From Psammoneis japonica (Eukaryota), in the NCBI GenBank assembly GCA_008632985.1, contig QPGO01000099.1, positions 103,679 through 167,678 of the forward strand: DNA of 64,000 nucleotides, in the 5' to 3' direction. Made by a program: the position numbers and the translations under genes. Below, one piece after another: positions 3,941 to 64,000 of the stretch. Position 1 is the first letter of the stretch; every line of letters begins with the position of its first letter. Under the pieces are notes generated by a model that saw only the letters and a program-made list of their open reading frames with translations, ran no database searches and was not told the DNA's origin.

Positions 3941-4269
3941 ACTCTACGAGGAGCCTGTCTCGGTGTCGCCTCGTCGATGCCTATGAAAGAATAAACCAGT
4001 GAACATGGCATTGAACACTACTCAAATTATGATTTGGCCGTTTTATTCCACCAATCACTTAAACGTCCTCATGGTTCCAAGGTTTGTTGCACCATATACT
4101 GTGCGACACCATGATTGTAGGCATTCTGTTTTCGATCTTCACTGTATTGCAGCCGTCGTTGCCTATTCCTTGCCCCTTATGCTCTCTCCGAGTTTTTCTA
4201 TTAAGCGTTCACAAAAGTAGCCTGGTTCGAGAAGCATTTCGGAAGGCTACAGCGATTGCGTTTGACACC

Positions 4270-16100: not shown

Positions 16101-16230
16101 GTGCTGCTGCTGTTGACGAAAGCTGAAAAAACTGCTGCCAGCAGGTTTTGCGCCAGCATCCCAAACCTTGACCAGAACAAAAGAGAGCCAACAACTTGCA
16201 GTGCAAATGCAATGAATGGTGAGCAGAGAG
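13190..16230 (-). pseudogene. Diverged, near full-length hypermutated copy of the SF2 helicase-HA gene, interrupted by a MITE
   Basis: Translated fragments match the intact gene: KLILVGQ..SRLIVASQASCSEACTT, AHEMEGAGNLFG, KSPKQVTMLGSK.DKFGAQTL, SFHSANARAQAF, ANCKALATGVD, HA repeats. Many frameshifts. Confidence 0.85.
14857..15191. mobile_element. ~335-bp MITE-like insertion with 16-bp imperfect TIRs
   Basis: Left TAGCTCTGGGTGGGAC (14857-14872); right GTCCCACCCAGGGCTG (15176-15191; reverse complement CAGCCCTGGGTGGGAC). It lies between two nearly adjacent parts of the helicase reading frame. Confidence 0.7.
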
Positions 16231-26671: not shown

Positions 26672-27589
26672 GGTGTGTGTATGATGTTGTAGTGATTGCA
26701 GAATAGCTTATTTGTCAACACTCGTCGCAATTCGTCACCGTCATCGTCACAGGTAGTGTCTTGTGTCGTCGCACGCGTTCATCTTATGCGTTGTAGGCGC
26801 GTGTTCGTACATCACAACTAGTTTAAATCTATCCATGAGAGACACATGATTTGTGCTCTAAATGGATTGTCGTTTTGTGTGTCACCTGGGGCTGGAACAC
26901 GTCTGCTCTCAGAAGAAGGCTTTGAAGAATTTCATCTGACAATTGCCAAGATGCTGGAGATCCTTGCTCCTGTGGCCTCCAGGACCCAATGCACAAAGAC
27001 TGCACCGCTTGATTTTCACACCTCGCACCAGCTGTGGCCCCGGCGACCCCCGGCCTGGCCAACTGCGCCCCGCACCACTGGTGAGCCGTGATTGTGAACA
27101 ATGATGACCTGGGCACCAAAGTGACACAGGAGGCAAAATGCTGCTCAGTTGGACATTTAAAATCAAAACACGGATTGAAAAACTGCAAACAAATTGCACC
27201 TGCACCAGCGGCTTTGCATTTTCACCCCTGTTGATGTTGTCGATTGCAGAGATTGTGGCTTGGAGAAGATGCAATCTCAAAGGAACATGTGAATTCAAAA
27301 AGAGGATGAAGAGCAAAATCCCATGGGTTTGATGACAATTGATGCAGTGTTGGCAGCGCAACAGCTGCAAACCAACGACAGCCGCCATTTTGTTGAACAA
27401 ACGTTGAAAAAGAGGTCATGATGTCGGCATGAATTTTGTGCACCAGATGCATGCGCACCTTTCTGCGCTGGCACAAAAAACCCATGAACAATGGAAAAGC
27501 TTGCCATGACACCATGAACATGACACATGGTCTGCAATGAAATAAAGTGCAAAAATGCAGTGTGATTGACAGAAAACAAAAATGCATTT

Positions 27590-29870: not shown

Positions 29871-31249
29871 GCTTCACCATGGAAAACTCTTCTGGATGAC
29901 TGCCAATTCCCTTGTCATTCAATTTCCACCTTCTTGCAAAATCATGGGGCAAAGATGGGGGCAACAACAAAACCTCATTTGGCTCCTCTCCAATTCACCC
30001 AGATGGATGACAGTGTGACATGTGGTGATGAATGAGCCAAAACCTCCTGCAGCGCACATGTGGCAAAAAGGAGGAAGAAGAAGAGGAATCATGTTGGAGC
30101 TGCTGATGGGGCTGCTCAAAGTGCAACTCTCAAGCAATTGTTTGACAAGACTTGCCACAGACAGATGATCTGATTGTGACTTCCTTGTCACTTTCAATGC
30201 TGCTGTCGCTTTCAATGCAATCGCACTCCTCTTTTGTTTTTTGTTTGAAAAACCTTCTCAATTCTTGCATGACTCCTTGAAGAAGCCACAGCCTCTCTGT
30301 CACAGCATGCATCACAAAAGAGGGCACAAGCACAAGTGGTGTTCTTGTTCTCTGATGGTGACACAATGCAAGTGCCTGTTGCAAATGCAAGAGTTGATGT
30401 CATTGTTGACACGAGAGTTTCAGTGACCTCATCGCTGCTCCTGCTCCAACAAAATGCATGTGCAGCATTGGTGTCCGTGTGTGTTGACTCCACGGCAGTG
30501 GAGGTTTTGCTCTTGATGCAAGCACTGTGAGCCATGCGTTGTTGTCATGGTGGGTGTCTTGTTGTTGTTGCAGGTTGGATGTCACCTCTTGTCACTTGTC
30601 ACCCATGTCCGCAAGCAACAATCAGGCTGGAGGTGGCAGGGACAGGCGAAGAAGCAAAACACGTGCACACAAGTAGAGACCATTGTGCAGACAGACCGCA
30701 ACTGCAATTTGTTCCTCTTTTGCCTGGCAGCATGTGCAGCACCAACACACAGTTCTTGGTGCAGGTGCCGGCACAGCAAGCTTGTTGCTGCTGTCTAAAT
30801 GGCAGATGACTCTCTGTGTGGAGACCAGCACAGGAGCCAAAAAGATGTGCATCATGAAATCAGCACTGCTGTCATTGTTCTTGTGAGCCACATGGCTTGT
30901 GAGAGCAAAAAGCTGCATCACGACAGTGCACAGAACCAAGAGCACACACATGTCTGTGTGTGCAACAAACTGACACAGCATGCAACAAATTGTGCACCAC
31001 TGAAGTCCTGTTCAAATCCTTTTGCTCCCCATTTTGCTTGAGGAAGCCACCAAAACAGACTCAAGGTTGGACTGGCCAAAGGCTTCAGCAGAAGGTCAAA
31101 AAGCTCCAAAGCACAAGAGGACAGAGAAGAAGGCTCTGGATCTGGGGCAACCCCAGTGCTTGCTCAAAATGTCAGCAGGGTTGTGGGAGCCTTCAACAAA
31201 GTGGAGCTGTCAAGGAAACCCTGGCAATTGCCTCTCATGAACATGGTGG

Positions 31250-31640
31250 AATGAGAGGGCAGCTTGTTGCCCTCAAACATGCAACAACAAGTGTCATGGA
31301 TCAGGATGCCAAGGCCATGCAGCATGGTGTGCAAATTGATGATCTGCTCCATGCAACAATTCCTCACAGTGACGAACTTGGACCCACAAGTTGTGATCTC
31401 AATGCCAGCTTGTTTCTTGGAGAACCAATCGGCTGGAAACTTGCTCAGGAAATGGATGATGCCATTGATGGAACACACAGCAAGCATGCAATGAAATGAG
31501 TTTGCACCAACAGGATGAGCCACAGCGACAAACATGCCAAGAGAGGCTTGGGTGCATCTTTGGGAATCAGCTCCTTCACATCACTGCAAAAGTGCCATGT
31601 CACATCTTGGGCAAAGTGTCAGACATTGTGCTCATCTGGG
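31250..31640 (-). mobile_element. Ty1/copia (CoDi-like) retrotransposon RNase H remnant
   Basis: DVKELIPKDAPKPL...GIIHFLSKFPADWFSKKQAGIEITTCGSKFV...EQIINL.TML.GLG.LI....MFEGN matches the copia RNase H pattern W.SKKQ..VE..TYGSEF..MFGDN. Confidence 0.8.
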
Positions 31641-32147
31641 ACCTTGCATCACTGAACTGCACAAAGACTGCGCCACTTGATTTTCAAACCTCAAACCATG
31701 GCCCTGGCAAACCATGGCCCGGCGAACTGTGCCCCACACCATTGGTGAGCTGTGCTTGTGAACAATGATGACCTGGGCATTGAAGTGAATCAGGAGGCAA
31801 AATGCTGCTCAGCTGGGCATTCAAAATCAAAACAAGGGCTGAAAAACAACAAACAAATTGCACCTGCACCAATGGCTTTGCATTTCTGCCCCTGTTGATG
31901 TTGTCAATTGCAGAGATTGTGGCTGGAGAAGACACAATCTCAAAGGAACATGCAAGTTAAAAAGAGAATGGCAAGCAACATCCTGTGGGTTTGATGACAA
32001 CTGACACAGTGTTGGTGGCACAATGATGGCTGCAAACTGATGACTGCCACCAAAAAAAGGTCATGATTCATGCCAACAGCAAAAAAAAATCATTTCTGCA
32101 AAGCCAACGCTGCTCTGAAACACCGCACAGCAAGCAACATGCATGGT

Positions 32148-32590
32148 GTCTGTTTGCCTCCCATTTCAGTCACAGCTTGCCATCTGCCACCCAACAAATC
32201 CTCCATCCACTCTGACTTCAGTGCACGCCACTTCAGAACAACAACAACCCATGTTGTTTTGTTGCAACTGTCTCTGTGTTGCACTCTGTCCATCCATTGT
32301 TGTCAGCAGAACAATTGAGCTCATCCGAGGCCACCATCATTTTGACAAAGACAAGGTCATGAGCTCTGCCACTGCCAAGAACAGCAATGATGACAAAAAA
32401 ACCACTTCTGTGACTGCTGGCATTGACTTTGGTTGCAAATCAACAAAAGTGGCACTGTGCATCAATGAGGACAATGATGCCCCAGTTGAAATTGTGTGAA
32501 ATGAAGTGGGTGGGCACATGACTCCAACCTTGGTGGCCTTCATGTGGGGCAGATGCATTGCATGGGAGAAGCTGCAACAGCACACAAAGG
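32148..32590 (+). pseudogene. Hypermutated duplicate of the promoter and 5' end of the Hsp70-TPR gene (43311-43762)
   Basis: Direct nucleotide similarity; translation MSSATAKNS..TSVTAGIDFGCKSTKVALCI..VEIV*NEVGGHMTPTLV. Confidence 0.9.
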
Positions 32591-34759
32591 GCTGCACCCC
32601 GTTCTGGCTTCCAGCTTGTTGACAAGTGCTGCACACATGCTGCTGCACATTGGCCCAAGTTTCAGCATGGGGCAATGAGTGAATGCATGGCTGATGGCAA
32701 CTTGCTGAAGCAAAGCACTCTCCTGAACAATCCCAGCCACTGAGATCTTCCATGAAAGCTCTTGTGCCTGGATGATTAAAGATGCCATGCATCTTGTTCA
32801 CCAGCTGCACAAAGTGATTTTTGTCACAAATGTTGTGACAACTGAAGCTGAAGCCATTCTCCCAACAGCTGTTGCAATGCTGGAATTTCTTGGACATGGC
32901 CAATTCACAGTGCATTGCTCCTGCAAATTCAAGAATGAGTGCACCTCAAAGGAAGACCAGCTCTCCTTCATGCAACGCCTCTGCCATGCTGTCAAGAGCA
33001 CCAGGATTTTCAAAGAGCCTTGGGCTCAAACAGTGCTCAATGCCCTTGCTGCACTCAAGCTTGTGTTCTTGGGGGCAAGACTTTGGGACACACGCACCAT
33101 TGTCAAGAATGACCTGATCAGAGTCACAGGTTGCATCAACAGGCAAAATGATGTTTCTCCAAAAAGGGGTTCCTGCAGAGAGAAGCAAAGATCTCAAAGC
33201 TGCAAACATGTGCAGATGGATCTTTGCTCTTCATGCTGCACTCTGTTGTCATTCACATCCCTGCTTTCATGATGATGACAGCATGCCATGCAATGTTGAT
33301 GCTGTGACCCATGTGCATGTGTCTTTGCCAGTGGCTGCAAGCTGCAAACACCTTGTGGATGTGTGGCAACAAAAGGGAAACAACTTTCACTGACAAAGTG
33401 CAGACAAGCAGATGGTGTTTCTTTTGCACCACATGCATCACCCCCTTTCCAAACTCAAGAGTGACCAAGACATCTGCAACAGCTCCCCAGCTGGCTGCTG
33501 GCCCATCAAGTTCTCTGATTTGTGCCATGCTGCATGAAGCCAAACATCACCTCTCCCCTGCAGCTTTGCTTGCCAAAGTGCCATCAGATGACAATTGAAC
33601 ACAACACATTGGAAGAGTCTGTTCTTGATGTGTTGCTGCCCCCAGCATCTTTGCTGCCACTCTTGTTGCCAAGTGTGCATCTGCTGTGAGCCTTGCAACA
33701 AAACAGCTTTTTCTTTGAGGCTTTGGGCTCTTGCAACAGCTCCTCCCTGCTGTGAGCTCCAAAGAGATGACTGGAAGTTGGCAAATCATCTTCTTGGCAA
33801 GCTTGCCCAACAGAGCCCAAAATCCTTGAGATTGTTGCAAAACACCAGTGGTGTGTGCACTCTTTTGTTCTGCACCAGCAGCAGCAGCACTGAGGCAGAC
33901 ACAGCAGCACTTGAGTGTCCGTTCCTCTCTGCTCCACTTGCAAAGATGAGACAGCCCCAGAACAGTGTTGACATTGTCTCTCTTGCTTCTTTTCCCCTTT
34001 TGCTGTCCATGGATGATTGCAGTGCACCAGTTGATCATGAGCACTTTGAGTTGGCATGGGAGTTGCCCAGTGTGTGAGGCTGTCTCCTTGACCACATGCC
34101 AGATGTCCCCAATGAATGAAGCTCACCCACAACCACACAGTCTCTTACTTTTTTGTGCTCCAGGCAAAGCAAAACTCTCTTTTCTCATCTTCAATGACTT
34201 GCAGAGCCAAACCAGATAAGAACTTTTCAGCATTTTTTGTTGGCAGCTCACATGAGCCCATCAGCTGCTGGCCTTTGTCAACTTTGAGCTTTCTTCAATG
34301 GCGCTGGTGGACTGCTGGTGCAATTTCCACAAATCACATTTTTCTGTGGCATGCACACAACAGGCAATTCCAGAAAAAACAATGATGAGAAAAGGGCAAA
34401 AGTCAATCAAATGTGCCCCATCCAGAAAACAACAAAGCAACACACACAAGCAAAAATGCAGAAGAAGCACATTTCTGAATTTCTTTTGGTGCTCACTTCA
34501 TGCAGCCAAAGACAATGGCCCAGTTTCCATGGACTTCCTGGTCATGAAACTTGTGCAACTCAAACATGCCTCATTCCCCACCATGGCTCACAAGCTCAGG
34601 CATGATCTCTCCTTGCTTGGCTGTGCAGACATGTTCATCAAACAGAAAAGCAGCTTTGCACACTGCAAGCCATCAGATCAAGCTGCTGCAACCTCACTCT
34701 CAAGCTGCTGCAACCTTTGGCAGTGCGGGCTCTGGCCAGAGCACGTGGGGCCCTGACAG

Positions 34760-35303
34760 CTGGAGAAGAGAGGAGTGGGTTTAATTGGACCACACTGGTT
34801 TGGAACGCTCTGTGTGCATGCTTGGACTTGTGCTCTGGGGATCACATCACTTCATCAAGCTCGCAACCAAGATGGGTCCAATCACACCAGCAACCTGTGT
34901 TGCCTTTACAACTCTGACTGTTGTGAGTCACCTGGGTGCATCATGTGGCGATCCTGGCATTGTCGGAGATGCAAAACCCCGCCATGTCACTCTCTGAATG
35001 TGGACAATTGGAGATGGTTTGGCTTGTGCAGTGTGTGTCAGTCACCCGATGGAGCCCATTGTCCAGACTGTATAAGGTTACGCCGCCGGGTATGATCATC
35101 ACTGTGTGTGGATGGGCACGTGCACTGGACGAAAGAACTTTCGAGCCTCTAAGATTTTCAACTTGTCGCGGTTGTTTTATTTGATTTACTGCATTGTGTG
35201 GGTCTCCATTGTGGCCCTAAGCGTATTCTCTGAGAAGAATAGTACTCACGATGACACAAGTGGCAATACAAACAGTACGGAAGGAGAACTGTCAAATGAT
35301 TGA
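34760..35303 (+). pseudogene. DHHC palmitoyl acyltransferase fragment
   Basis: CGDPGIV...WRW.GLCSV.QSPDGAHCPDC, then after a frameshift GYDHHCVWMGTCTGRKNFR followed by a TM segment. Confidence 0.8.
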
Positions 35304-37336: not shown

Positions 37337-40060
37337 CTACTCTCTAGCGAAAACAACGCCAAGATCCAGCAGTCGACTCTTCCGGCTATTCTTTAGTTTT
37401 CCAGCCTTCCATGCTTGCTTTTGATCGCTTAACCAAACTCCAAGATTCATCCCATCCTCTTTGTGACCCCGCAGCACCCTACAATGGCCCTCACGCGCCA
37501 CAAATCGTCCAAGAAGAGAAAACATAGTCTCCCATCGCTCAGCCCGAACGTCCCACTCCACTCCAGCCTTCTCCAGTCGTTCCTGTCTAGAAGCGTTCAG
37601 TTTCCCTTTCCTTTTATCTCTCGTTTGGGTGCCCAACCACCTTCCAAGGTTCTCCCCATCCTCTTTGTGACCCTGCAGTACCCTGCAATGGCCCTCCCGT
37701 TCGTTGAATTGCTCGAGAAGTGAAAACATAGTCTCCCATTGGTTTTCAAACACGCCCCACTCCACTCCAGCCTCCTCGAGTTTTTCTTCTTTGACAATGT
37801 CAAGCTTCCCGAGCTTATATTTTAGTCGTTGGTTGCCCAACCAACATCCAAGGGCAAAGCCATCCTCAACGTATCTATTGGGAACATTACAATTGCCTTC
37901 TCTCTCCAAGTAAACCAAGAGTAGGCTGTAAGCGCGATTCCATTTAAAATCGTTCACGTTCCACTCGACTCCCGCCTTCTTGAGCGCTTGTTGACGAGAA
38001 ATATCCAGCATCCCATTCTTTTTGGCCTGCCGTTGTTTGCTTAACCAATGCCCCAAATTCATCCCCTCCTCTTTGTGGCTATAAGGAACTTCGCAATTCC
38101 CTTCGCGGTCTCTATACACCAAGAGCAAATCGTACATGCGATTCCAGGAACTCTTGTCCTTGTATTCTCTAATGGCGCGGTTCATGATGTCATTTTTCAT
38201 TTCAAATGACATTGAATCGGGAAGCATGAAGGAATCAAGGACACGAGGAGGGTACTCGTCTTCCTTCAAAGGCCTTCCTAGTCTGTCGCTCTCTTCAATC
38301 ACAAACAAGACATCCTGACGTAACTCGGGATCCAGACCAACCATGGCCTCAAAAGCAGTGGTAAAAGTTTCGTATCCGTTGGTATCCTCAGTCAATTCCT
38401 CATCAGAAGCAATTGGAACGGGAACAAGAACGTAACCACGGTTTTTACCGAACGCTTTCCGGCTTACACGTCCAATCATTTGACGTGCCAGAACTGAACT
38501 CCGAACGGGATCGGCCATTACAACCAACTCCCAATCCGCCTCGTCAACACCTGTCGCCAGTACTTTGCAGTTCGCAACGATAGATTTCGATGCAAACCTT
38601 GCTTCTTGTAGCACATGTTCCCGATTTACTGCAGACATTTTGGGACTGCCACAAACAACAAATGTAGATATGTCGTCCTTCAACGCCGTTTCAGTCGAGT
38701 CCACAAAAGCCCGTGCTCGAGCATTGGTAGAGTGGAACGACACAGCACGGCTTACATTTAACTTATAGAAAGCCGCTTCGATTGCAAAAGGCAGCAAGGT
38801 ATCTTTTGAGAGCTGGCTGGAATCGATATGTGCGTGTTCACTGACCTCGTCTTGATCCACAACACATAGTGTAATGGGGACTGTAATGTTTTGCTCCACG
38901 CTTTCTCTCAATGTCCGTCGTTCGATGCACGGTCCAAACAGCGCTTTATCGACAAAGCTCCTAATGCCCGAGAGGCAACGAGTGGTTTCTGCTTCCCTTT
39001 TCGGCAAGAGCGTTTGCGCGCCGTACTTGTCAAGCTTGGATCCCAGAACGGTGATTTGTTTCGGAGACTGTGTGTACCGACGAGGAGTTGCTGTAAGGAA
39101 GAGACGGTAGTCAACTGGAAGAAACGAATCATAGAGACCATATCCAAATAGCCTCCCTGCTCCTTCCATCTCGTGTGCTTCGTCAAAAATACCAAAGGAA
39201 ATGCTGCCTCCAATCGCTTGAAGAGCCTCTCCAACCCGTGGTAGAGAGTTGTAAGTGCAGGCAATGACCCGTAGCTCACTCTCATGAGAAGAGAGAAAAG
39301 CTTTTATCTCGTCAACTGATGTAGTGCAAGCCTCGGATCGACTGGTTTGGCTAGCCACAATCAATCTCGAGTGCGAAATGTCGGCAGCAAGTCCAGAACC
39401 ATCCAAGAAATCTAGCACTTGATCGACCAAGATGAGTTTCGGTGTTACGTATATCGCTGTCTGAACTTTTGATAGATCGGGACCTACTCCTTCTCGTGCT
39501 AACCGCGAAAGTGTTTCCAAGGCCAACAACGTTTTACCCCAACCCGGTGGAAGCTGGACGTTTGCTCTGCGGAAATAATTTTCTTCTCTCGAAAAACGAG
39601 AGATCTCTCCGGATAAGCCATTTGAATTGTCCCCATTTCCTCCACTTGAAGTTCTCTCAGCTCCCTTGTAATGCTCTATGATGGACTCTATTATGCTATC
39701 GTGACGACCATCTAGATCTTGGAAGCCGCCTTGACTCATGAGTGACGTACTAGTTCCTGGGGCGGCACTTTCTCTTCTGCCACTAACTTTCGGAGGAGTT
39801 GGCAGTTCTTGATTCTCAAGCATCATAACAGCACTTTTTTCGTAATTCTCTGAAAGGTACACTCTTTGATCATCTGCGATTGTCATCTCAGCGTGTTGGT
39901 CTATGATTGTGTCGTTGAATATCTCTAATGTAGCTGATTTCATCAGGTAAAAACATTCTCTGCTCTTTGGTAAGCCAAACAGTGCCGGTTGAAAAGGAAA
40001 AGAGACGGATAACTGCTGAAACAGCAGAGCTACAAATAGATTTTTACAAAGGCTATTCAT
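37337..40060 (-). CDS. SF2 DExH helicase (ResIII-like + helicase C) with four C-terminal helicase-associated (HA) repeats and an N-terminal signal-peptide-like segment
   Basis: Intact 907-aa ORF: LPPGWGKT, FDEAH, LTATP, LATGVD, QMIGR; repeats W..MF.LL..F..REG.C.VP..H...G..LG.WL..QR. Confidence 0.92.
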   Translation of the reverse strand: MNSLCKNLFVALLFQQLSVSFPFQPALFGLPKSRECFYLMKSATLEIFNDTIIDQHAEMTIADDQRVYLSENYEKSAVMMLENQELPTPPKVSGRRESAAPGTSTSLMSQGGFQDLDGRHDSIIESIIEHYKGAERTSSGGNGDNSNGLSGEISRFSREENYFRRANVQLPPGWGKTLLALETLSRLAREGVGPDLSKVQTAIYVTPKLILVDQVLDFLDGSGLAADISHSRLIVASQTSRSEACTTSVDEIKAFLSSHESELRVIACTYNSLPRVGEALQAIGGSISFGIFDEAHEMEGAGRLFGYGLYDSFLPVDYRLFLTATPRRYTQSPKQITVLGSKLDKYGAQTLLPKREAETTRCLSGIRSFVDKALFGPCIERRTLRESVEQNITVPITLCVVDQDEVSEHAHIDSSQLSKDTLLPFAIEAAFYKLNVSRAVSFHSTNARARAFVDSTETALKDDISTFVVCGSPKMSAVNREHVLQEARFASKSIVANCKVLATGVDEADWELVVMADPVRSSVLARQMIGRVSRKAFGKNRGYVLVPVPIASDEELTEDTNGYETFTTAFEAMVGLDPELRQDVLFVIEESDRLGRPLKEDEYPPRVLDSFMLPDSMSFEMKNDIMNRAIREYKDKSSWNRMYDLLLVYRDREGNCEVPYSHKEEGMNLGHWLSKQRQAKKNGMLDISRQQALKKAGVEWNVNDFKWNRAYSLLLVYLEREGNCNVPNRYVEDGFALGCWLGNQRLKYKLGKLDIVKEEKLEEAGVEWGVFENQWETMFSLLEQFNEREGHCRVLQGHKEDGENLGRWLGTQTRDKRKGKLNASRQERLEKAGVEWDVRAERWETMFSLLGRFVAREGHCRVLRGHKEDGMNLGVWLSDQKQAWKAGKLKNSRKSRLLDLGVVFARE

Positions 40061-41664: not shown

Positions 41665-42400
41665 CAAACTAACTGTTTTAATTCTTTAAAACAGAAACAC
41701 AGACGAGACCAAGAAAATCCCCCCCATTGCAGAGACTGCTTTCTACCAAAAACAATGCCAAGATCCAGCAGTCGATTCATGCGGCTGTTCTCCAGCTTTC
41801 CAGCCTCCCATGCTTGCTTTTGATTGCCCATCCAAACTCCAAGTCTCTTTCCATTTTCAATGTGTCTTTGATGCACCCTGCAATGTCCCTCCCATTTCAT
41901 GAATTGTTTGAGAATTGAAAGCATTGTCTCCCATTGATCTTTGAAAACATTCCACTCAATTCCAGCATCCTCCAGGCATCTCTGTCAAGAAGCGTCCAGC
42001 TCCCCTTTCCTTTCAGCCATCCGTTGGTCTCTCAACCAATTTCCAAGGTTGATCCCATCTCCTTTGTGACCCTGTGGCACCCTGCAATGTCCCTCTCTCT
42101 TCTTGAATTGGTTGAGAAGTGAAAACACTATCTCCCATTGATCTTTCAAAATGTCCAACTCAATTCCAGCATTCTCCAATCATCTCTGTCAAGAAGCATC
42201 CAGCTCCCCTTTCCATTTGGCCATCCATTGGTCTTTCAACCAAGGTCCAAGGTTTTGACCCCATCTTCTTTGTGACCACTTAACACCCTGCAATGTCCCT
42301 CCAGTTTCTTGAACTGTTCAAGAAGTGAAAACCCAGTCTCCCATTGATTTTCAAACACACCCCACTCAACTCCAGCCCCCTTGAGTTTTTCTTCTTTGAT
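41665..42400 (-). pseudogene. HA-repeat 3' remnant of the helicase gene, with homologous downstream flank
   Basis: HA repeats ending RLLDLGIVF; the flank matches 37262-37340; hypermutated. Confidence 0.85.
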
Positions 42401-43532
42401 GATCTTGGAAACTGCACAATGGTCAAGCCACCATGTCTGCACATTGCATTGCTTCCAGATCTGTGTGGATGTGGGCAATTGGCAGTGTGCAATGGGGATC
42501 CTGCATTGTGGGTGCAGCCAACAACGATGCTGAGTTCCGAGCATTTTTGACCACAGTGAAGAGAGTGCCTTGTGATGGGAGCAATTGTGCAAGTCCGTCA
42601 CCAGCACCACTTGAAGAAGCCAGAGCACAAGCAGCACCCTCCCAGCTCTGGGCAGGGCCTCATGCTGCTGAGCCTGTGATGTGTTGAGATTTTTTTGTCA
42701 TGCGCCACATGTTGCACACAAGCACATTTCTGTGTGACTTTGGGGCAGAGCTTTGGTGTGCTGGTGTTGTTTGCGGTGTGCAGCAGCACAGTTGTTGGGT
42801 GCACCAGCCCACCAAGCAGCTGCTTTGTCACATTTTTGCAAAGCATCACTCTTCTTTTTGGATGTCTTGAGAGTGACACAGGGAAGGCAGATTTTCAAAA
42901 ACTTCAAGCGGGTCGGCAGGTGCAAAGAGTGTGCGCCACACACACAGCTGAACTTGGTCTTACGTCAAAGATGAGCACACACACTGATGCCAGAGTGTGG
43001 GCTGCACCAGAGCTTGCATGTGGAGCTTGCAGGTCCAGCATGCTGCACGGAGCCCTGCCCAGGTCTTGAGATCACAAAGAGCCACAAAATCATCTCAAGT
43101 TCTTGGCTCGCACCCAGCTGCACTTGCAAAGACACCAGCAACGCTCTCTGCTTTCATTTGCCGATGGCCTTGTAGGAGAAGACCCCAGCAAAAAGATGTT
43201 TGGTTGTGAAGGTCAAGGAAAAGTAGAGGCACTGTGGCAACAAGCACCATCATCCAATCCTCACTGGTGCGATCTGCGGTGTCTCGTCTGTCTCTTGAGT
43301 GCAAATGAAGTCTGCTTGCCTCCCGTTTCAGTCACGGCTCGCTATCCGCCACCCAATAAATCCTCCATCCAATCCGTCCTATGGATGCACCGGTATTTCA
43401 GCATGCCACTTCAGCACACGACGTACACAAGTCCGTCTTTACTTTCTCTGTTGCACTCTGTCCATTCGTTTTTCACTTGAACATATTGAAACTCGTCCGA
43501 GGTCACAATCGTTTTGATAAAGACAAAAGATC

Positions 43533-46274: not shown

Positions 46275-49200
46275 ATGGCCACCACCTCAGAACGAAATGC
46301 CGTCGCAGCCGACGAGTCATCAGTGCCTACTTGCCCCCTTCCAGAGAACGCTTCCAAACACCCTGAAGTGTCTTCTGATAAAAGGGGGCAAGTAGAGCTC
46401 AAGGCTCTGGAGAGCAAATGTGGCTCAGAAGTGCGCTCGCTTCTTGCGGAGTTTTTCCGCAGCATGTCGAGCAACAAGCCTTGGTTCTTTGCTGTCAAAG
46501 AGCCTCTTGTTCAGATGGAGAGCACCAGCAATGGAGAGGACATCGAAAAAGAGGCATTGAAGCCAGTGCCTCTCATGGGCACTGCTTTGTGTCTTCCTTG
46601 TTCGGGCGCATGAAAACGATCTGTTTGTCACCATCCTCGCCATTGCCGGCCTCGTCGAACAAAAGGGCAAGCACCTCAATGTCAAAAGAGATGTGTGGCA
46701 GGACTTTTTTAATGATCACAACCTCAGCAATGCAATTGTTGTCAAGAAAATCACCCCTGACACTGATGGCAAGAAGGTTCATTTCACTCGTGTCGGAGGC
46801 AAGTTTGGCAGCCTTGAAATTGTGAAACAGTTTGCCAAGGATCCCAAGGAACGGTTGTTGAAACCAAAGTGTCAGATGACCAAGCTTCGGTCCAGTTTTG
46901 TTGATGGGATCAACAGCCTTCTCCTGGACATTCTCTCAGATCATTGCATGAGCAACATGACAGATGGCGGTTTGGAAGGCGATGACATGAACAATGCTGC
47001 TGATGCCAAGCAAGACGCAGGTGTGACGGAAGAGGAGAAGATGGAACAAGAAGAAGCCAAAGACGGGATGGAGGAATCAGAAGAGCCAGTTGAAGCATCT
47101 GAAGAAACAAGCGAGGAAGTTGGACAGAAGGAACCACTGGAGTTCGAGAAGACAATCGACATTGACGAGAATCTTTGTCCTCAACTCTCTGGACTGTCGA
47201 GCGGCATCAAGCGATGGGAGCCATCTAGATTGGTTCACGACATGGTCAAGCTGCATGAAGCTGCATCCATGGAGATCACTTGTGGAGATCGGCATCCAAT
47301 GGTTTTGGCGCCAATCCCAAGGACTGCGAAGAAGAGCTGCAAGAACTTCCGTGACAGTTGCGCTGGGAGAAAATGGCTTCACGTCATTTTAAGACACATT
47401 GGCGGAGGTGACAAGACAGTTGGGACAGAAGAAGCCGAGTCATTGGGGGCTGAGTGGGTGTGTCAATGGCCAGCTACAAAGTGTGAAGCAGATTTCATGG
47501 CAGCATCCAAGGCTTCCGGTCTTCCCGTGACGCACAGAATGGACAGAATCGCAGCTGCTGCCATGTGGAGCGCTGCAAACGTCACATCAACCAGCAGCGA
47601 GTCATCCCAAGACACTTGCGGCACCAGTTTGGCAAGAGAATTGTTGTGCCGGAACGGGATGTGCAAGCCCTGGGAGATGGACATGTGCCTGCGTCGCATG
47701 GATCACATGACCACAAAAAGAACAAGAAGAGCGACGAGCACAGCGACGACACCAAAAACGTTGAAAAGATCAATTGCTGCACAAGGTCCATTCTAGATTG
47801 CATTTCCACTGAAGTGAATGGCGCACTTCAAACTCAGGTGTCATCTGAGGTTGACAACGACAAGGCATTGAAGAGCTGCCCCACCCGCAATGGCCTCGGC
47901 TGGAATCTCATCTGTGGCGGAGATCATGGGAAAAAAGAGTCCAGTGCGGTGGGCAAGCTCCACACGCACAGTGCTGAACACCGGAGAGCTCTGCTGGAGA
48001 AGAGTTGGCATGAGCTCAACACAAAACAAACAGATGCGGGAGGGTGCCGCATCTTCAAGTGTGCAAGCATCCAGTGCAAGAAAGACAACTCCGACATTCT
48101 TGCTGACACCATCTCAGCAACAATTGACAAGGACATTGAGATGTTGCTCTCACAACAGTCAGTTGGAATCAAGCAAGGAGGCGACAGCAGCAATGTCCAA
48201 TCCCTCTGTGTCCAGAAAGGCGCAACAAACATGAGGGTTGAGAAACAAAACCAAAGCAACGTGATGGCCTTTGACGCAGAGGGTGATGGATTTGCTGCCA
48301 CCATGCATGAACCACTTGCCTTGGACGGTGACAAGTGTGAGATGATGCTCGACGTCCCACAATTTACAATGTGCGTCATGGGTGACCTTGCATTCCATGC
48401 CAATGTTCTGGGCAAACCAAACTCGAGCGGCTGTTGGTGCCACCTCTGCAAACTGAACCACAAAGAGTGGAACGTAGCTGGGCATGAGAAAGGAGAGAAG
48501 TGGACTGTTGAGGAAATGAAGGCAGCATTGCAAGAGCACCTAAATTCCGATCAGGTCGACGCCATCAAGGGGGCACGCGAGAAAATGCACCACACAAGCA
48601 TCTCACCTCAGCTTTGCATTTGCCCGCCACTTCACATGGAAACAGGGTTGGCAAATGAAGGCTGGGACGACCTTCAAGAGTGGATTGATGAAGAGCTGGG
48701 GGAGATTGACGCCGAGGAAGTGCAGGCTCGGACAGCCGTTGTCACCGCCAGCACCATGATGCAAGCTGCCATGGAGAAACAACGCAAGCAGAGGGAAACA
48801 GCAGAAGTGGAGGTGAAGGATTTGAAACTCACCAAGAAGACACCAGTGAGGCAGTGCAAAGCCGCAAAGAAGGCTGCCAATGGCGAGTTGGAAGCCGACT
48901 TGAAAGATCGCATCAAGGCAACTGAGAGCGCAATTGAGAGCAAGGAAAAAGAGATTAGAGAAGCAATGGATGATTCCAAGAAAAAGCAAGCTTGCTTGAG
49001 GAAATGTAAAGAACGGGTTGCCAAGCTGCGGAAGGCTCGTGGGTGGCCCATTGATGGCATCGCCGCTCAAACTGAGGCAATTCTGAAACGGTGCGGCACA
49101 AAGCGTGAGGCGTGCCATGGCGGGGATTTCAACGGTGGATCCTGCAGGAAAATTGGGGAAAACAGCCAGGAGACAATGTCAGAGATGACTGAAGCCATTC

Positions 49201-49754
49201 TGGAGGCGAGAAAGAAACAATCAAGTCTCACCGATGAGCAAGTCAAAGAAAAATGCAGTGAATGTGGCACCCTCTTCGGTCTGTTGGACTCACTCTTTGC
49301 TTCCATTCAGGTGGTTCACCCCACTGAAGAAGAGATTGCCACAACAGAGGAAACAACAAATCGCACTGAAGTCTTGTGGCATGGCTTGGGGACATCCATC
49401 ACAACAAAAATGCATTTGGTGTTGGATCATTTGGCAGATCAAATGCACGAACATGATGGGATCGGCAACAAGGACGAAAACCATGTCGAGGTTGAGCACC
49501 AACACTCTCACAAAGCCAACATCAGAACCCAACTAATCAAGAGACATGATGCACAGAAAAACGCCCAGATCAAGTTCCGCCAGATTGCCAAAGATGCTTC
49601 AGCAGCAGAGAAACGGGAGGAGGTGACGCAGGCCTCGAAGCAAAAATTCAAGGACTGCTCTCGCAAGACCGGGCATTTGGAGGCATCAAAGAAGAAGAAG
49701 GCCATCAAGGATGAGAAGAGGGATCATTTTAGAGGTGGGGGTCAATGCATGTAA
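46275..49754 (+). mobile_element. Chapaev/Transib-type (RAG1-related) DDE transposase, frameshifted and hypermutated
   Basis: GGDHG, GDLAF..VLG..CxxC, PPLH..G, HGGDFNG, ITTKMH..DH, ENHVE.EH. Split over ORFs 46275..46613, 46693..47796 and 47565..49754. Confidence 0.72.
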
Positions 49755-49980
49755 ATTGGCTCACCTGATTGTTGCTTTACGTGTGCCACAAACGAATGGC
49801 AGAAAAGTGAGCGTCGTGTGCAAAGGAAAAACGGCATTGGGCAAAAAAGTGAGCGTCGGTGCGTTGGATGCAATTTTTTGAAATTGTGCAGAAATGTACG
49901 TCAGTTTTCTGGCATGTCGAGTTTTGCACCAGACCTGCTGAGCACGCTGCGACCCACGAGCTGAAGCTGTCGTGTTCGCT

Positions 49981-51181
49981 GGGCGATCCAGGAAACTTCA
50001 AAGGCTTCAAAAGATTCCATGTTCCATGACATTTCTGATGTTTTTTCTACAAACGGAGCTCACAACTTGTTGGCGCCATTTAAATGAGGGGCAACAGACA
50101 AAAGATCGAACAAACAAGTTGTGTTTTCGAAGTTGTTTGAAGTGTTCGAATGTTGTTCAAAGTGTTCAAACTTTTGTTGCAAATGTGTTGCCCTGCTGTC
50201 ATTTGGATTAAAAGAAAAAATGTTTGAACTTTCATTGTCGCCCTTTTGGTCACTTCAAACTGATTCAAACAAAGTTCGAACTTGTTTGAACAAGTTCGAA
50301 GTGTTCGAAGTGCATGGCAGTGCTGTGTGATGTGTCTGTTTGCACAAACTGCATTTTCGTTCGCACTGCCCGGCACGCGACACTTGTCCCACCGTGCTTC
50401 ACAACAATGGCACCAAAACTTGGCCGCCAATTGCCCAAAACCACTCATTTGGATGCTGACAAGCAATGCATGGGTCCTCCATCAACCGCTTGGATTGACA
50501 ATGCCATGGTTCATCACCTCAAAACCAATTTTGTTGTCTGTAGAACCGCTCCTCTGTTGTCATCAAGACAAACCACATAAAACCCTGTGCAAACGAAAAA
50601 TGACAAGCTTCCATTGATGACATCAGTGCAAAAATGGCTCACATGATGTCATTGCAATGCCCTGCACAATCGCTCATGGGTTGATTGACAAGTTGGGGTC
50701 ATCTCTCACAGCAGCGTCAACATGATGTCGCATCGGAAGAGGCGGCATTTCGGTCATGGCAACATGGTTTTGTGCTGATTTGTGCAAGCGCTGTTTTGAC
50801 CACGCATCCAAAAAACACTCATGTGCAGAAGCAACACCACGCAGTGTGGCCCAAAGTTAATGACATGGTGTTTCCTTGTCAACATTTGCCCATCGCTTGC
50901 TGCAGAAGGCAGACAAATCAGAAAGCACAAATCATGTTCAACAATTTAAGTCATGTGAGACTTTGAAAATGTTTGAAGTGCTTCAAAGTGTTTGAACACT
51001 TCAAACAAGTTCAAAAACTTTGAACAAAGTCTGAGGCAATGACAAGGGCAACAGAGACAGAAACCTCAAAATGTTGGAAGCTTTTGTGTCCATCCTGCAC
51101 GAGGTCCACACAGGGATGTGTTGACAGGAGTTGGGAATCTTCTGTTTCTTTTTCAAAACTTTGAAGTTTCCTGGATCGCCC
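49981..51181. mobile_element. 1.2-kb non-autonomous DNA transposon with perfect 23-bp TIRs and subterminal TTCGAA/TTTGAA repeats
   Basis: GGGCGATCCAGGAAACTTCAAAG at 49981-50003 and its exact reverse complement at 51159-51181; clusters of GTTCGAA/GTTTGAA/TTCAAA at 50120-50310 and 50960-51025. Confidence 0.8.
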
Positions 51182-52509
51182 TGCAACTGCAGCCATTGAT
51201 TGATGTTTGCATGTTCATTTTCTCAATCACGGCCCAGCAATTCTGCAAGACTGGCAGGCAATGCAGAGAGTTCAAGTTTGGATGTGACTGTTTGAGGGGC
51301 CATTCAATGCTGACTCACATGGTGGGCTTGCCATTTCAACCAATTGAAAGCACTGGCTGTGAGAGGCATCCTCAGAGCACATTTGTTTCACTTGGAGTGC
51401 TGCTCTCTGTTGTCTGCAGGTGGCTGCTGCCATTTCAACATGCCCCATTGAATCCGCGACAAAGATTGGCTTTGTGCAGGATGCTGGGCACTTTGTGGAA
51501 AGGCGCAATGATGAGTTTAGGACAAAGCACTGTTTCACGCGTGCGCACAAGCTGCACGGCATTTGTCTTGGGGGGCAAATGCGAAGAAACGGCAACTCAT
51601 GGAATGGCGTCCTCATGCAAACCTGCAAAATCTGTGACAAAAGTGGCTGTGAAACAATGCATGCTAGAGTGTTGATTTAGAAGTGGCACTGCATTTGTTG
51701 GGAAGACTTTGGAACAGCACAAAGGCGCACACACTGCAGCAGGTTGCTGGGGTCGATCGCATGAGTTTCAGCGTTAAACTGCATGCTCTGTTGGTGCACC
51801 TGACTGTGTGCTGAGGGGAGGCAACACTCACTCACAACAGCCATGTGCTGCCTCAAGACAATGATGATTTGACACGTTCTTCCAAATGCTCGATTTGAGT
51901 GAGCTGTGCAGACAAAGTCAAGCTTTCGGTCTCTTTGAACGTGGCATCGGCGTGCAATGAATGGAAAAGATGGGACACCCCCGCACATTCGCAGGATCGA
52001 GTGAGTTTAGCCTGTGCTGCAAGAGGATTGGCATTTGCAGCTAGACACTAGCATCTACGCTGGAAAGGGGAAACAGAGCACCGTGCATTGGAGGCACAGC
52101 AATCTTTTTTCGAGCAGTGTGCAGTGTCCGACGAAGTTTGAACCTCGACCAAGTTTTTGATTGTTGCTGCACAGATGCTGCTGGTATTTTGACGAGCTCC
52201 ACTCAGACCACAAGATTAGACCAACGCCATTAAGAAAACGCCAATGTGTAGGGACTATACCTTGCAAAGAGAGGTTAAGCAATGATCCATGATGCGGCTG
52301 TGATTTGTGATTCTTGACTCGTGGCTCGTGGTGATCTTTTTTCTGTCCGTGACCCGCCTGAAGATCGTTTCGCGGTTCATCGATCATCGACTCGCATCGA
52401 CGCTGATGTCGACTGTCGAATGTCGAAGCTTTCACACAAGAGGGTAATACAACACACAGTATAAAACAACACGTCCAGCCTCCTCATCAGTCTTATTGTT
52501 GCTTCCATC

Positions 52510-61307: not shown

Positions 61308-61525
61308 GATGATGCGATTCCAGCGACATGGATAGTGCGGGCATTCAGTGTAAAGAAAGAAGAAAATGAGGCGCATCGCATGCACAAGGATGACGGATGA
61401 CGGACATGCGACGCGGCCCATAACACATGCATTGAAATCATGCATAACGCATGCATCGATCGCATCATGCTGGCGTACAGTGTTGGCATCTTTTTTGGCT
61501 TCTTGCTATTCAGTTCTTCTCGACT

Positions 61526-64000
61526 ATGAATAGCCTTTGTAAATATCTATTTGTAGCTCTGCTGTTTCAGCAGTTATGCGTCTCTTTTCCTTTTCAACCG
61601 GCACTGTTTGGCTTACCAAAGAGCAGAGATTGTTTTCACCTGATGAAATCAGCTACATTAGAGATATTCAACGACACAATCATAGACCAACACGCTGAGA
61701 TGACAATCGCAGATGATCAAAGAGTGTACCTTTCAGAGAATTACGGAAAAAGGGCTGTTATGATGCTTGAGAATCAAGAACTGCCAACTCCTCCGAAAAT
61801 TAGTGATAGAGGAGAAAGTGCCGCCCCTGGAACTAGTACGTCACTCATGAGTCAAGGCGGCTTCCAAGATCTAGATGGTCGTCACGATAGCATAATAGAG
61901 TCCATCATACAGCATTACAAGGGAGGTGAGAGTACTTCAGGTGGAGGAAACGGGGACAATTCAAATGGCTTATCCGGAGAGATATCTCGTTTTTCGAGAG
62001 AAGAAAATTATTTCCGCAGAGCAAACGTCCAGCTTCCACCGGGTTGGGGTAAAACGTTGTTGGCCTTGGAAACACTTTCGCGGTTAGCACGAGAAAGAGT
62101 AGGTCCCGATCGATCAAAAGTTCAGTGAGTGACATGCGCAACACTGAAACTCATCTTGGTCGATCAAGTGCTGGATTTCTCGGATGGCTCTGGACTTGTT
62201 GCCGACATTTCGCACTCGAGATTGATTGTGGCCAGTCAGACAAGCCGCACCGAGGCTTGCACCACATTGGTTGACAAGTCTGCAGCTTTTCTTCCCACTC
62301 ATGAGAGTGAGCTGCGGTTCATTGCCTGCGCTTGCAACTCTCTGCCACGGGTTGGAGAGGCTCTTCAAGCGATTGGAGGCAGCATTTCCTTTGGTATTTT
62401 TGACGAAGCACACGAGATGGAAGGAGCAGGGAGGCTATTTGGATACGGTCTCTATGATTCGTTTCTTCCAGTCGACTACCGTCTCTTCCTTACAGCAACT
62501 CCTCGTCGGTACACACAGTCTCCGAAACAAATCACCGTTCTGGGATCCAAGCTTGACAAGTACGGCGCGCAAACACTCTTGCCGAAAAGGGAAGCAGAAA
62601 CCACTCGTTGCCTCTCGGGCATTAGGAGCTTTGTCGATGAAGCGCTCTTTGGACCGTGCATCGAACGACGGACGTTGATAGAAAGCGTGGAGCAAAACAT
62701 TACAGTCCCCATTACACTATGTGTTGTGGATCAAGACGAGGTCAGTGAACACGCACATATCGATTCCAGCCAGCTCTCAAAAGATACCTTGCTGCCTTTT
62801 GCAATCGAAGCGGCTTTCTATAAGTTAAATGTAAGCCGTGCTGTGTCGTTCCACTCTACCAATGCTCGAGCACGGGCTTTTGTGGACTCGACTGAAACGG
62901 CGTTGAAGGACGACATATCTACATTTGTTGTTTGTGGCAGTCCCAAAATGTCTGCAGTAAATCGGGAACATGTGCTACAAGAAGCCAGGTTTGCATCGAA
63001 ATCTATCGTTGCGAACTGCAAAGTACTGGCGACAGGTGTTGACGAGGCGGATTGGGAGTTGGTTGTAATGGCCGATCCCGTTCGGAGTTCAGTTCTGGCA
63101 CGTCAAATGATTGGACGTGTAAGCCGGAAAGCGTTCGGAAAAAACCGTGGTTACGTTCTTGTTCCCATTCCAATTGCTTCTGATGAGGAATTGACCGAGG
63201 ATACCAACGGATACGAAACTTTTACCACTGCTTTTGAGGCCATGGTTGGTCTGGATCCCGAGTTACGTCAGGATGTCTTGTTTGTGATTGAAGAGAGCGA
63301 CAGGCTAGGAAGGCCTTTGAAGGAAGACGAGTACCCTCCTCGTGTCCTCAATTCCTTCATGCTTCCCGATTTGTTGTCCTTTGAAACGAAAAAAGACATC
63401 ATGAACCGCGCCATTAGAGAATACAAGGACAAGAGTTCCTGGGATCGCATGTACGATTTGCTCTTGAAGTATAGAGACCGCGAAGGCAGTTGCAAAGTTC
63501 CTTCTAGGCACAAAGAAGAGGGGATGAGTTTGGGGCATTGGTTAAGCAGACAACGGCAGGCCAAAAAGAATGGGATGCTGGATATTTCTCGTCAACAAGC
63601 GCTCAAGAAGGTGGGAGTCGAGTGGAACGTGTACGATGATAAATGGAATCGCGCTTACAGCCTACTCTTGGTTTACCTGGAGAGAGAAGGCAATTGTAAT
63701 GTTCCCAGTAAATACGTTGAGGATGGCTTTGCCCTTGGACGTTGGTTGAGCAACCAACGACTAAAATATAAGCTCGGGAAGCTTGACATTGTCAAAGAAG
63801 AAAAACTCGAGGAGGCTGGAGTGGAGTGGGACGTGTGGGAAAACCAATGGGAGACTATGTTTTCACTTCTCGAGCAATTCAACGAACGGGAGGGCCATTG
63901 TAGGGTACTGTTTGGTCACGAAGAGGATGGGGAGAACCTTGGAAGGTGGTTGGACACCCAAAGGAAAGCTAAAAGGAAAGGGACAATGGACGCTTCCCGA
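61526..64000 (+). pseudogene. Near-identical inverted copy of the 37337-40060 helicase-HA gene with a premature TGA at 62126; runs off the window
   Basis: Close match to the reverse complement of 37570-40215, including upstream DNA (61385-61525); the stop lies within a mutated patch. Confidence 0.9.

Follow-up and report, generated by a model that had tools for sequence, protein, structure and literature searches.

A TA-free patch in a young helicase gene duplicate of the diatom Psammoneis japonica: probably a gene-conversion tract from an older paralogue that had lost its TA

We analysed a 64,000-nucleotide stretch of the genome of the diatom Psammoneis japonica (contig QPGO01000099.1, positions 103,679 to 167,678 of the forward strand), referred to below as the window and numbered from its first letter. 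One copy of a duplicated helicase gene in the window carries a short and sharply bounded patch in which every TA dinucleotide has been lost, and the same TA-loss signature is found window-wide, in islands of kilobase size. Sequence comparison suggests that the patch entered the gene through a short interlocus conversion event, with an older paralogue that had already been TA-converted as the donor, and we put the probability of this reading at about 0.6.

Results

A diverged, TA-free patch in copy B

Copy A (37337..40060, reverse strand) is an intact open reading frame of 907 amino acids with ResIII/DEAD and Helicase_C domains and four HA domains. Copy B (61526..64000, forward strand) is an SF2 helicase and HA-repeat gene that extends beyond the window end; its two open reading frames, 61451..62128 and 62129..64000, share one frame. 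The two copies are inverted duplicates 21 kb apart and form a 2516-nt inverted repeat with 96% complementary arms (37590-40105 and 61481-63996). They were aligned without gaps across 61481-63998, where the position in A equals 101586 minus the position in B, and differed at 115 of 2518 positions.

These differences were concentrated in one tract. Between 62126 and 62344 on the forward strand, the minimum extent of the patch as bounded by its outermost excess differences, 36 of 219 positions differed (16.4%), against 79 of 2299 elsewhere (3.4%; Fisher p = 9e-13). Divergence in the patch was thus roughly fivefold that of the remaining alignment, and the 101 bp after 62344 contained no difference at all. 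The nearest flanking differences set its maximum extent at approximately 62113-62445. The counterpart in copy A, at 39242..39460 on the reverse strand, holds 10 TA.

Counted over 62120-62345, copy A has 10 TA and copy B none, while CG is nearly unchanged (11 in A, 10 in B) and TG plus CA is higher in B (46 against 32 in A). The flanks of copy B have kept their TA, with 29 in A against 31 in B on the left and 59 against 58 on the right; outside the patch, two TA>CA/TG changes and two in the reverse direction were found among about 88 TA, giving no net loss. The first-pass annotation had described a TA-less patch in an otherwise near-identical copy, with most CG retained and TA-bearing flanks, and the alignment agrees with it on each of these points, including all seven of the sequence conversions that it quoted.

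Nine of the ten TA have each undergone one transition, either TA>CA or TA>TG; the tenth disappeared within a replaced block of five bases at 62279-62283, and no TA was gained. Read along the patch, the outcomes were interleaved: CA, TG, CA, TG, CA, CA, other, TG, TG, TG. The nine transitions make up just 9 of the 36 differences. Three others were CG>CA/TG, two were CA/TG>CG, and 22 belonged to no signature class, in line with the extra non-signature differences mentioned in the annotation; five tandem double substitutions were also present. Six differences at 62233-62248 fall in a period-3 run (P = 0.002 under uniform placement), to which we give little weight at a local density of 31%.

Copy B is left with 295 bp devoid of TA (62100..62395), bounded on each side by a TA common to both copies. 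Among 1536 TA-to-TA intervals measured in ordinary DNA across the window this is the longest, the runner-up being 198 bp. Loss of all TA by chance was rejected, since 36 random substitutions destroyed 10 of 10 TA in only about 1 of 100,000 trials.

The stop codon and lost conserved residues

The sole in-frame stop of copy B, from the ATG at 61526 to the window end, is the TGA at 62126..62128 (forward strand), where copy A has ACA (Thr). The inactivating stop was therefore correctly placed in the patch by the annotation, but it is not a product of the signature: ACA and TGA differ by two transversions, and neither is a TA or CG signature change. The codons that follow (62129..62146, forward strand) encode the conserved stretch AIYVTP, which we take to be helicase motif Ia. 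Copy B reads VTCATL here, owing to five changes (CG>TG, TA>CA, TA>TG, TA>CA and CG>TG). Among 19 outgroup proteins, the Y of this stretch is kept in 16, the V in 17 and the P in 17.

Divergence and constraint

Synonymous divergence between the copies (pS) was 0.271 in the patch, 0.030 in the left segment, 0.035 in the helicase core and 0.066 in the HA-repeat region. The patch value is some nine times as high as in the left segment and the helicase core, which adjoin it (Fisher test on the synonymous sites of the patch versus both neighbours: p = 6e-8). The ratio pN/pS was 0.47 in the patch, and the comparison of synonymous with non-synonymous changes, a weak test when taken alone, gave Fisher p = 0.02, or p = 0.08 after the signature changes were reverted. 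The excess in pS together with this ratio suggests that many of the patch differences arose under coding constraint and not in one burst.

Downstream of the patch, the helicase core (62345-63280) has dS 0.036 and dN 0.004, giving an omega of 0.12. It contains 3 non-synonymous differences, compared with about 14 expected had B evolved neutrally after the split (Poisson P = 5e-4). This result suggests that the stop is recent and that B was the recipient. It also upholds the view of the annotation that a young duplicate has been disabled, as B was under constraint until recently.

Two residues in the patch appear to be derived in copy A. Copy A has Lys where B keeps the Ala of the family (16 of 19 outgroups), and Val where B keeps Phe (9 of 19 outgroups, with Leu in another 9); the state of A occurs in none of the outgroups at either site. 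When the old paralogue described below as copy C was used as outgroup, it agreed with B at 12 of the 36 patch sites, part of which can be accounted for by parallel TA conversion and chance. With the same outgroup, a manual count from the alignment of the non-TA patch differences gave 15 derived on the B side against 6, an excess that a burst confined to B would produce as well.

TA-depleted islands in the window

Four large islands and the tract in copy D described below show the same loss of TA. In the 1-kb bins of the large islands the observed/expected ratio (o/e) is 0.00-0.10 for TA and 1.5-2.1 for TG plus CA, the edges are sharp, and TA conversion is saturated over 1.4 to 8 kb. The island at 13255..19161 is depleted in both TA and CG and has sharp edges (bins 14001-19000: TA o/e 0.02-0.06, CG o/e 0.13-0.34, TG plus CA o/e 1.7-1.9). 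The island at 26859..35071, depleted likewise, carries remnants of FG-GAP_2 repeats and includes the longest TA-free run of the window (1771 bp, 28903-30674), and a third TA- and CG-depleted island, 41744..43173, lies over a further HA-repeat remnant. CG has been lost only partly from the TA-depleted island at 46393..52008 (bins 47001-52000: TA o/e 0.06-0.10, CG o/e 0.45-0.70). Island edges meet the ends of gene copies at 13255 (copy C) and 41744 (the HA remnant). The surroundings of copy B are ordinary DNA with no island.

Pfam searches of 112 island open reading frames gave FG-GAP_2 above the cut-off in two and HA just below the cut-off in one, the rest being sub-threshold noise; 12 long island open reading frames matched no family, and no viral or transposon family was matched among the 124. 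At 47487-49751, a comparison with the Protein Atlas returned transposase-like neighbours with scores all under 0.9, which is a weak lead only.

Two further members of the helicase family are affected. Copy C (13196..15728, reverse strand) is an old, broken paralogue in a TA- and CG-poor island and keeps 1 of the 67 TA of copy A. Copy D (2611..3945, forward strand) is a truncated paralogue that begins at copy A residue 536. Its first part, 2611-2787, is A/B-like (98.3% identical, 6 of 7 TA kept), and it is TA-converted from approximately 2746-2788 onward.

The edited A was followed by C more often than by any other base: 38 of 59 TAC were changed, against 18 of 49 TAT, 11 of 43 TAG and 8 of 45 TAA. 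Within the patch, which of the two strands was edited follows the TAC preference of copies C and D (5/6, compared with 38/59 overall).

The converted tract of copy D has a pN/pS of 0.42 (Fisher p = 1.5e-4). After the signature changes were reverted, its pS was 0.162 and its pN 0.080, and the corresponding values of the patch were 0.176 and 0.082. By this match the patch and the copy D tract fit one older lineage, although the agreement involves two tracts only and a constant collateral share in a mutagenic process would give the same.

Search for a donor

Within the window, blastn and tblastn matched only copies A and C for the patch segment, and copy C, 66% identical to the patch, was rejected as the donor because it is too diverged. 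A protein search limited to the patch residues gave no match, and two exact 23-base patterns had 0 matches in metagenome contigs. Against 1.84 billion representative proteins, among which the proteins of this organism are absent, the best match had 61% identity. Thus the donor search proposed in the annotation yielded no donor in the window or in the public collections.

Sequencing depth and the possibility of an assembly artefact

The annotation had also named an observation that would overturn its reading, namely reads showing the patch to be a consensus or polishing chimera from another copy. In that case the patch would belong to a different family member and would have been written into B by the assembler. 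We checked this with Logan contigs of three sequencing runs from one sample and one study, of which X1 and X2 supplied contigs over this region and X3 none. At 13 patch positions of run X1 (62263-62297), the letters of A had a depth of 53.9 out of 109.8, which leaves about 56 for the letters of B, and the unique flank had 55.5; had the true B been A-like, the A letters would stand at about 110. The X1 positions listed within 62126-62245 comprise 62236 only, and among the X1 pieces listed none spans the whole stretch or passes from flank to patch. One X1 contig, 62345-62672 (2 other letters), starts right past the last patch difference, resembling a two-branch bubble whose flanks are shared. 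On the side of a chimera, the family is large (119 X1 contigs on 4 kb, 63 of them less than 90% alike), within the unique flank a contig and the window disagree at 60581 and 60806, and run X2 shows only an A-type contig over the patch (31/31), gaps in contig cover being uninformative. Since each version stands at the depth of one copy in run X1, the chimera is disfavoured and we regard it as highly improbable. The nearly single-copy depth of the B letters also means that no identical donor is visible in run X1; a donor diverged by a few percent would escape 31-mer contigs.

Origin of the patch

Gene conversion from a diverged, mutated paralogue, which the annotation had favoured, is the best-supported reading. 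The synonymous excess, the pN/pS of 0.47, the apparently A-derived residues, the match with copy D and the absence of net TA loss from the B flanks all argue for it indirectly, but the donor itself was not found. TA conversion is complete in the patch (10/10) and absent from the flanks of B. A possible but unlikely alternative is that the patch was made in copy B itself, by a short-range and possibly homology- or RNA-guided TpA deamination of about 250 bp, with error-prone repair adding the non-signature changes including the TGA. Such an event would agree with the lack of a donor in the searches, with the single-copy depth of the B letters, with the mainly B-derived non-TA differences and with the arrangement of A and B as inverted duplicates 21 kb apart, a target type for repeat-triggered defence. 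The TAC preference in the patch, shared with copies C and D, points to the same process wherever it acted. A burst, however, should give a pN/pS near 1, against the 0.47 seen together with a pS some ninefold that of the adjoining flanks, and copy A appears to have derived residues of its own in the patch. Moreover, the other 2.3 kb of copy B show no TA loss, the known process yields pure TpA transitions, and the five tandem double substitutions and the five-base block resemble old divergence.

The mosaic could also have been formed the other way round, the patch being the old resident, either because a functional paralogue supplied copy A with a new segment or because A-type sequence overwrote both sides of an old, TA-converted B. 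Mosaic ancestry is what the data display, and they do not give its direction directly; copy D even shows the opposite layout, with an A/B-like part joined to a long TA-converted tract. Yet a B that had carried the stop throughout should have been neutral, in conflict with the low omega and the deficit of non-synonymous differences in its helicase core. B also sits in ordinary DNA and not in an island, and one short conversion is a more parsimonious account than two long ones in the flanks. We consider this order of events improbable. Two other sources of the signature were rejected. Repeat-induced point mutation (RIP) of the fungal type acts in the wrong direction, since the codons of copy A that contain TA (two for Tyr, one each for Ile and Val) represent states found across the family, and a retro-copied, ADAR-type hyper-edited RNA would show one strand only, in contrast to the interleaved TG and CA outcomes.

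Under gene conversion from the older paralogue, copy B would have been a working young duplicate of the helicase gene A beforehand. A conversion of about 220-330 bp would then have overwritten its segment from motif Ia to just before motif II. The putative donor would belong to an older paralogue lineage, T, that had already become a pseudogene and been fully TA-converted in an island of its own. The converting process would change TpA to TpG or CpA (A>G on either strand) with a preference for 5'-TAC, presumably by adenine deamination, and may be of the same kind as that described for Bigelowiella natans. The imported tract would have brought in the TGA and the loss of the conserved Tyr, Val and Pro, by which B would have been disabled.

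Discussion

The closest known case is that of Bigelowiella natans, in which integrated viral DNA undergoes TpA-specific hypermutation (Mettrop et al., bioRxiv 10.64898/2026.01.13.699255). According to the parts of that preprint consulted, 230 of 231 changes were TpA transitions, scattered over time and without collateral changes, and an ADAT2/TadA-like adenine deaminase was put forward as the agent (bioRxiv 10.64898/2026.01.13.699255). As far as those parts describe it, the footprint is shared: TpA>TpG and TpA>CpA changes, a subset of genome regions affected, and TpA depletion with CpA and TpG enrichment in clustered kilobase windows. The changes in B. natans are AT>GC only; in the patch, transitions of this kind account for 9 of the 36 differences. 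The differences are also clear. B. natans is a chlorarachniophyte, whereas the host here is a diatom, and compared with what the same parts report, the affected DNA here includes host helicase-family duplicates (copies C and D) in place of recognisable viral genes. The islands here are CpG-poor as well and have undergone nearly total TA depletion. A 5'-TAC preference is seen here, while the words 'trinucleotide', 'context' and 'CpG' do not occur in the main text of the preprint. Finally, the patch itself was in the most probable reading copied from DNA of this kind and is not a site where the process acted.

The tRNA adenosine deaminases of the TadA/ADAT type, and the early adenine base editors, prefer a U/T-A-C substrate. 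In the window, too, the edited A comes after a T and has C as its most frequent 3' neighbour; an enzyme of this type may have acted on DNA here. The transfer proposed for the patch also has a counterpart in the human pseudogene CYP21A1P, which serves as the template for interlocus gene conversion into CYP21A2. As in that case, the tract is short and sharply bounded, is older in its divergence than its flanks, would come from a dead paralogue and would bring disabling changes into a working copy. Unlike in CYP21A1P, the damage of the putative donor would be a context-specific hypermutation signature and not ordinary decay.

In RIP of ascomycetes, duplicated DNA receives context-specific transitions and is then silenced (PMC2621366, PMC7296669). 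In what these sources describe, mutated duplicates are the common feature, and here the island edges at 13255 and 41744 coincide with copy ends. RIP makes TA by converting CpA to TpA, whereas TA is destroyed here, so that no fungal machinery is implied. If the patch did arise by a local event in copy B, the diatom would have a counterpart of RIP that targets adenine and is guided by repeats or by RNA. This defence would be able to hit short stretches of functional genes, and its repair would leave collateral substitutions.

The TpA>TpG/CpA footprint, for which the only account that we found in print is a 2026 preprint dealing with a chlorarachniophyte, is now seen in a diatom, on duplicates of host genes. 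The paired copies allow a site-by-site comparison of the states before and after conversion, and the 5'-TAC preference is a clue to the enzyme. With gene conversion from an older paralogue as its source, the patch would link two processes: silenced copies lose their TA to context-specific hypermutation, and conversion between paralogues can spread the damage to a working gene. Copy B is apparently a duplicate under purifying selection that was killed by such a transfer.

A TA-free patch in one of two near-identical helicase genes

Copies A and B encode an SF2 helicase (ResIII/DEAD + Helicase_C) with HA repeats after the helicase domains. In copy A (37337-40060, minus strand) the ORF is intact and 907 aa long; copy B (plus strand) starts with the ATG at 61526 and runs beyond the window end, the gene being cut by the window edge. 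Together they make up an inverted repeat of 2516 nt whose arms are 96% alike and separated by about 21 kb, and their gap-free alignment contained 115 differences over 2518 aligned positions. In line with a diatom origin of the window, the top named relative of this helicase was from Seminavis (36%); those of the RPAC1-like gene at 5023-6327 were from Fragilariopsis (65%), Nitzschia (57%), and also Chaetoceros, Pseudo-nitzschia and Cylindrotheca.

Within the 219-bp patch at 62126-62344 of copy B, 36 differences were found (16.4%), against 79 in the other 2299 positions (3.4%; Fisher p = 9e-13). When the interval 62120-62345 was compared between copies A and B, TA fell from 10 to 0 and CG from 11 to 10, TG+CA rose from 32 to 46, and G+C rose from 0.469 to 0.522. 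The flanks kept their TA (29 vs 31 and 59 vs 58). The first-pass annotation had described a TA-free patch with most CG retained, additional non-signature differences and an inactivating TGA, and each of the conversions it quoted was present in the alignment.

Nine of the ten TA had been removed by a single transition each, TA>CA or TA>TG (the signature), and the tenth lay within a replaced 5-base block. The TG and CA outcomes alternated along the patch, indicating that both strands were hit. The remaining patch differences were three CG>TG/CA, two TG/CA>CG and 22 of other kinds, including 10 transversions; in copy B outside the patch, TA>CA/TG was found twice and the reverse twice. Destruction of all ten TA by 36 randomly placed substitutions occurred about once per 100,000 trials, and the 295-bp TA-free gap in copy B was the longest among 1536 gaps of the window's ordinary DNA. 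The sole in-frame stop of copy B up to the window end was the TGA at 62126-62128, which differs from ACA in copy A by two transversions, and is thus not a signature change.

Direction and sequence context of TA loss

At two Tyr>Cys sites, the Tyr of copy A was found in 16 and 18 of 19 outgroup proteins. At other TA-bearing codons, the Val of copy A was shared by 17 of the 19, and the Ile by nine, with Leu in nine more. This agreement indicated that TA was ancestral and has since been destroyed. Fungal RIP was rejected as a candidate, because the destruction of TA is the opposite direction.

Sequence context was counted by pairing copy A with the patch, with the converted tract of the truncated paralogue copy D (2788-3330) and with the old broken paralogue copy C (13560-15760). 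Over the available strands, the A was edited in 38 of 59 cases when followed by C, 18 of 49 by T, 11 of 43 by G and 8 of 45 by A (chi-square p = 3.6e-6). At head-to-head sites with different +1 bases on the two strands, C won 33 times and lost 6 times, and in the patch alone TAC was edited at five of the six sites offering it. This preference points to a TadA/ADAT-like enzyme as the putative agent; the substrate preference of such enzymes is in line with TAC. Copy C had the same outcome as copy B at six TA sites, an agreement that context-driven strand choice would produce without descent of the patch from copy C.

TA-depleted islands hold decayed host genes

The whole window showed a TA o/e of 0.41 and TG and CA o/e of 1.35-1.38, and was two-state. 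Ordinary DNA carried 35-55 TA per kb with CG o/e of about 1, and TA-depleted islands lay at 2746-3945 (the copy D tract), 13255-19161, 26859-35071 (the largest), 41744-43173 and 46393-52008. The large islands had sharp edges, with TA o/e of 0.00-0.10 and TG+CA o/e of 1.5-2.1 in 1-kb bins, and the longest TA-free run was 1771 bp (28903-30674). CG o/e was 0.03-0.35 in most islands and 0.45-0.70 in 46393-52008, where TA was gone and much of the CG kept, suggesting that TA loss was early and fast, and that CpG decay came later. Island G+C stayed at about 0.48, because CG>TG/CA and TA>TG/CA cancel out.

Host genes in decayed form were found in the islands, namely helicase copy C (13196-15728, minus strand), HA-repeat remnants and FG-GAP_2 remnants. 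Among 124 island ORFs scanned, none matched a viral or transposon Pfam family. The FG-GAP_2 remnants (27593-28659, minus strand; 31.8 and 24.8 bits, cut-off 23) lay inside the largest TA-free island, and are a second host-type gene family in converted DNA. The 755-codon open frame at 47487-49751 had no Pfam match; its Protein Atlas neighbours (Plavaka, Transposase_21, RAG1 RNase-H-like) all scored below 0.9 and are leads only. Long open frames in islands are expected by chance, since TA-free DNA cannot contain TAA or TAG.

Depth of the patch in public sequencing runs

Three public runs of one sample cover the stretch; runs X1 and X2 were compared as Logan contigs. Under a consensus or polishing chimera, the A letters would be expected at roughly twice the normal depth. 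For 13 positions of the patch (62263-62297), the A letters in X1 had a depth of 53.9 of 109.8, leaving about 56 for the window's B letters, beside a unique flank depth of 55.5; this comparison rests mainly on the second half of the patch, with few first-half positions covered, and the run may be the source data of the assembly itself. An X1 contig also starts at 62345, right behind the final patch difference, and the pattern is that of two single-copy variants between shared flanks. An artefact would agree with the A-type contig that alone covers the patch in X2, and with the lack of a flank-to-patch bridge among the contig records listed; given the X1 depths, we regard it as hardly credible.

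The contigs of X1 and X2 also departed from the window in the unique flank, with T at 60581 and A at 60806 instead of C at both sites; this reflects either a difference between the run and the assembled individual or minor consensus errors in the assembly. Differences between A and B were clustered a second time, on a smaller scale, at 63349-63394 (9 in 46 bp), where the copy A letters were common to 3-9 family contigs in X1, and the copy B letters at 63350 and 63394 were rare or unseen among X1 contigs. At 63372, the copy B letter had a depth of about 29 in X1, half of the single-copy depth, and may be a heterozygous allele.

Divergence and origin of the patch

By Nei-Gojobori counts between copies A and B, the patch had pS 0.271 and pN 0.129 (ratio 0.47), the N-terminal part (61526-62125) dS 0.031 and omega 1.07, the helicase core (62345-63280) dS 0.036, dN 0.004 and omega 0.12, and the HA region (63281-63997) dS 0.069 and omega 0.93. 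With dN/dS of about 1 in the N-terminal 200 codons and the HA region, constraint on this gene is mostly in the core. Synonymous divergence in the patch exceeded that in both adjoining segments about ninefold (p = 6e-8), and non-synonymous change lagged behind it (p = 0.02, modest for the patch alone). The core held three non-synonymous differences, against about 14 expected under neutral evolution of copy B from the split onwards (P = 5e-4). This constraint indicates that the stop is recent and that copy B is the recipient, in agreement with the proposal that a signature tract can disable a young duplicate.

Copy D (2611-3945, plus strand) is a mosaic of an A/B-like piece, at the broken end, and a TA-converted tract. 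Over 2611-2787, its first 177 bp, it was 98.3% identical to copy A and kept six of seven TA; from 2788 on, identity was 85.6%, with 2 of 20 TA and 11 of 24 CG kept. Judging from this mosaic, working and converted copies seem to have exchanged sequence in both directions. The D tract had pS 0.268 and pN 0.112 (ratio 0.42, p = 1.5e-4). When signature changes were reverted, the D tract (pS 0.162, pN 0.080) and the patch (pS 0.176, pN 0.082), two tracts only, were practically equal, which fits one older TA-converted lineage. Copy D would be one fragment of this lineage and another member the patch donor; copy D itself is truncated and lacks the gene part matching the patch.

We give a probability of about 60% to gene conversion into copy B from a TA-converted paralogue, by which old, already converted sequence would have been copied in rather than produced by a burst at copy B. 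This origin, favoured in the first-pass annotation, has the best support of the readings compared, from the synonymous excess, the match with copy D and the residues that appear derived in copy A, but is not proven; the search for a donor in the window and public collections found none. No identical donor shows up in X1, where the B letters had single-copy depth, although a donor diverged by a few percent would share no 31-mers. A local event at copy B itself is unlikely. With copy C as outgroup, 15 non-TA patch differences fell on the B side and 6 on the A side (counted from the alignment), a pattern that a local event followed by error-prone repair would also give. A burst would not make non-synonymous change lag, and the like structure and divergence of the D tract also point away from one. 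Within the patch, copy A moreover appears to be derived at two residues, with Lys where copy B and 16 of 19 outgroups have Ala, and Val where copy B and 9 of 19 have Phe; TA conversion is complete in the patch, while the remaining 2.3 kb of copy B show none. A reversed direction, with the patch as an old resident relic in copy B, is still less probable, as the core remains constrained and the stop is recent.

The closest precedent is the 2026 preprint on Bigelowiella natans by Mettrop et al. (bioRxiv 10.64898/2026.01.13.699255). As given in its main text, two integrated viral regions mutated about 1000x faster than the remaining genome in mutation-accumulation lines, 230 of 231 changes there were A>G or T>C with the GC-biased ones all on TpA, 124 TpA-poor, CpA+TpG-rich clusters were found genome-wide, and an ADAT2-like deaminase was proposed as the candidate agent; a term search of that text returned neither trinucleotide context nor CpG. 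No report of a TpA footprint in diatoms was found among the papers listed by the literature searches. Unlike those viral regions, the targets in P. japonica, a diatom, are host gene duplicates.

The patch is best read as a new case in which two known processes meet, gene conversion templated by a pseudogene and TpA hypermutation of the kind recently described. Its setting is notable in that the host is a diatom, the targets are duplicates of host genes, TA loss is near-total and accompanied by loss of CpG, and TAC is preferred.
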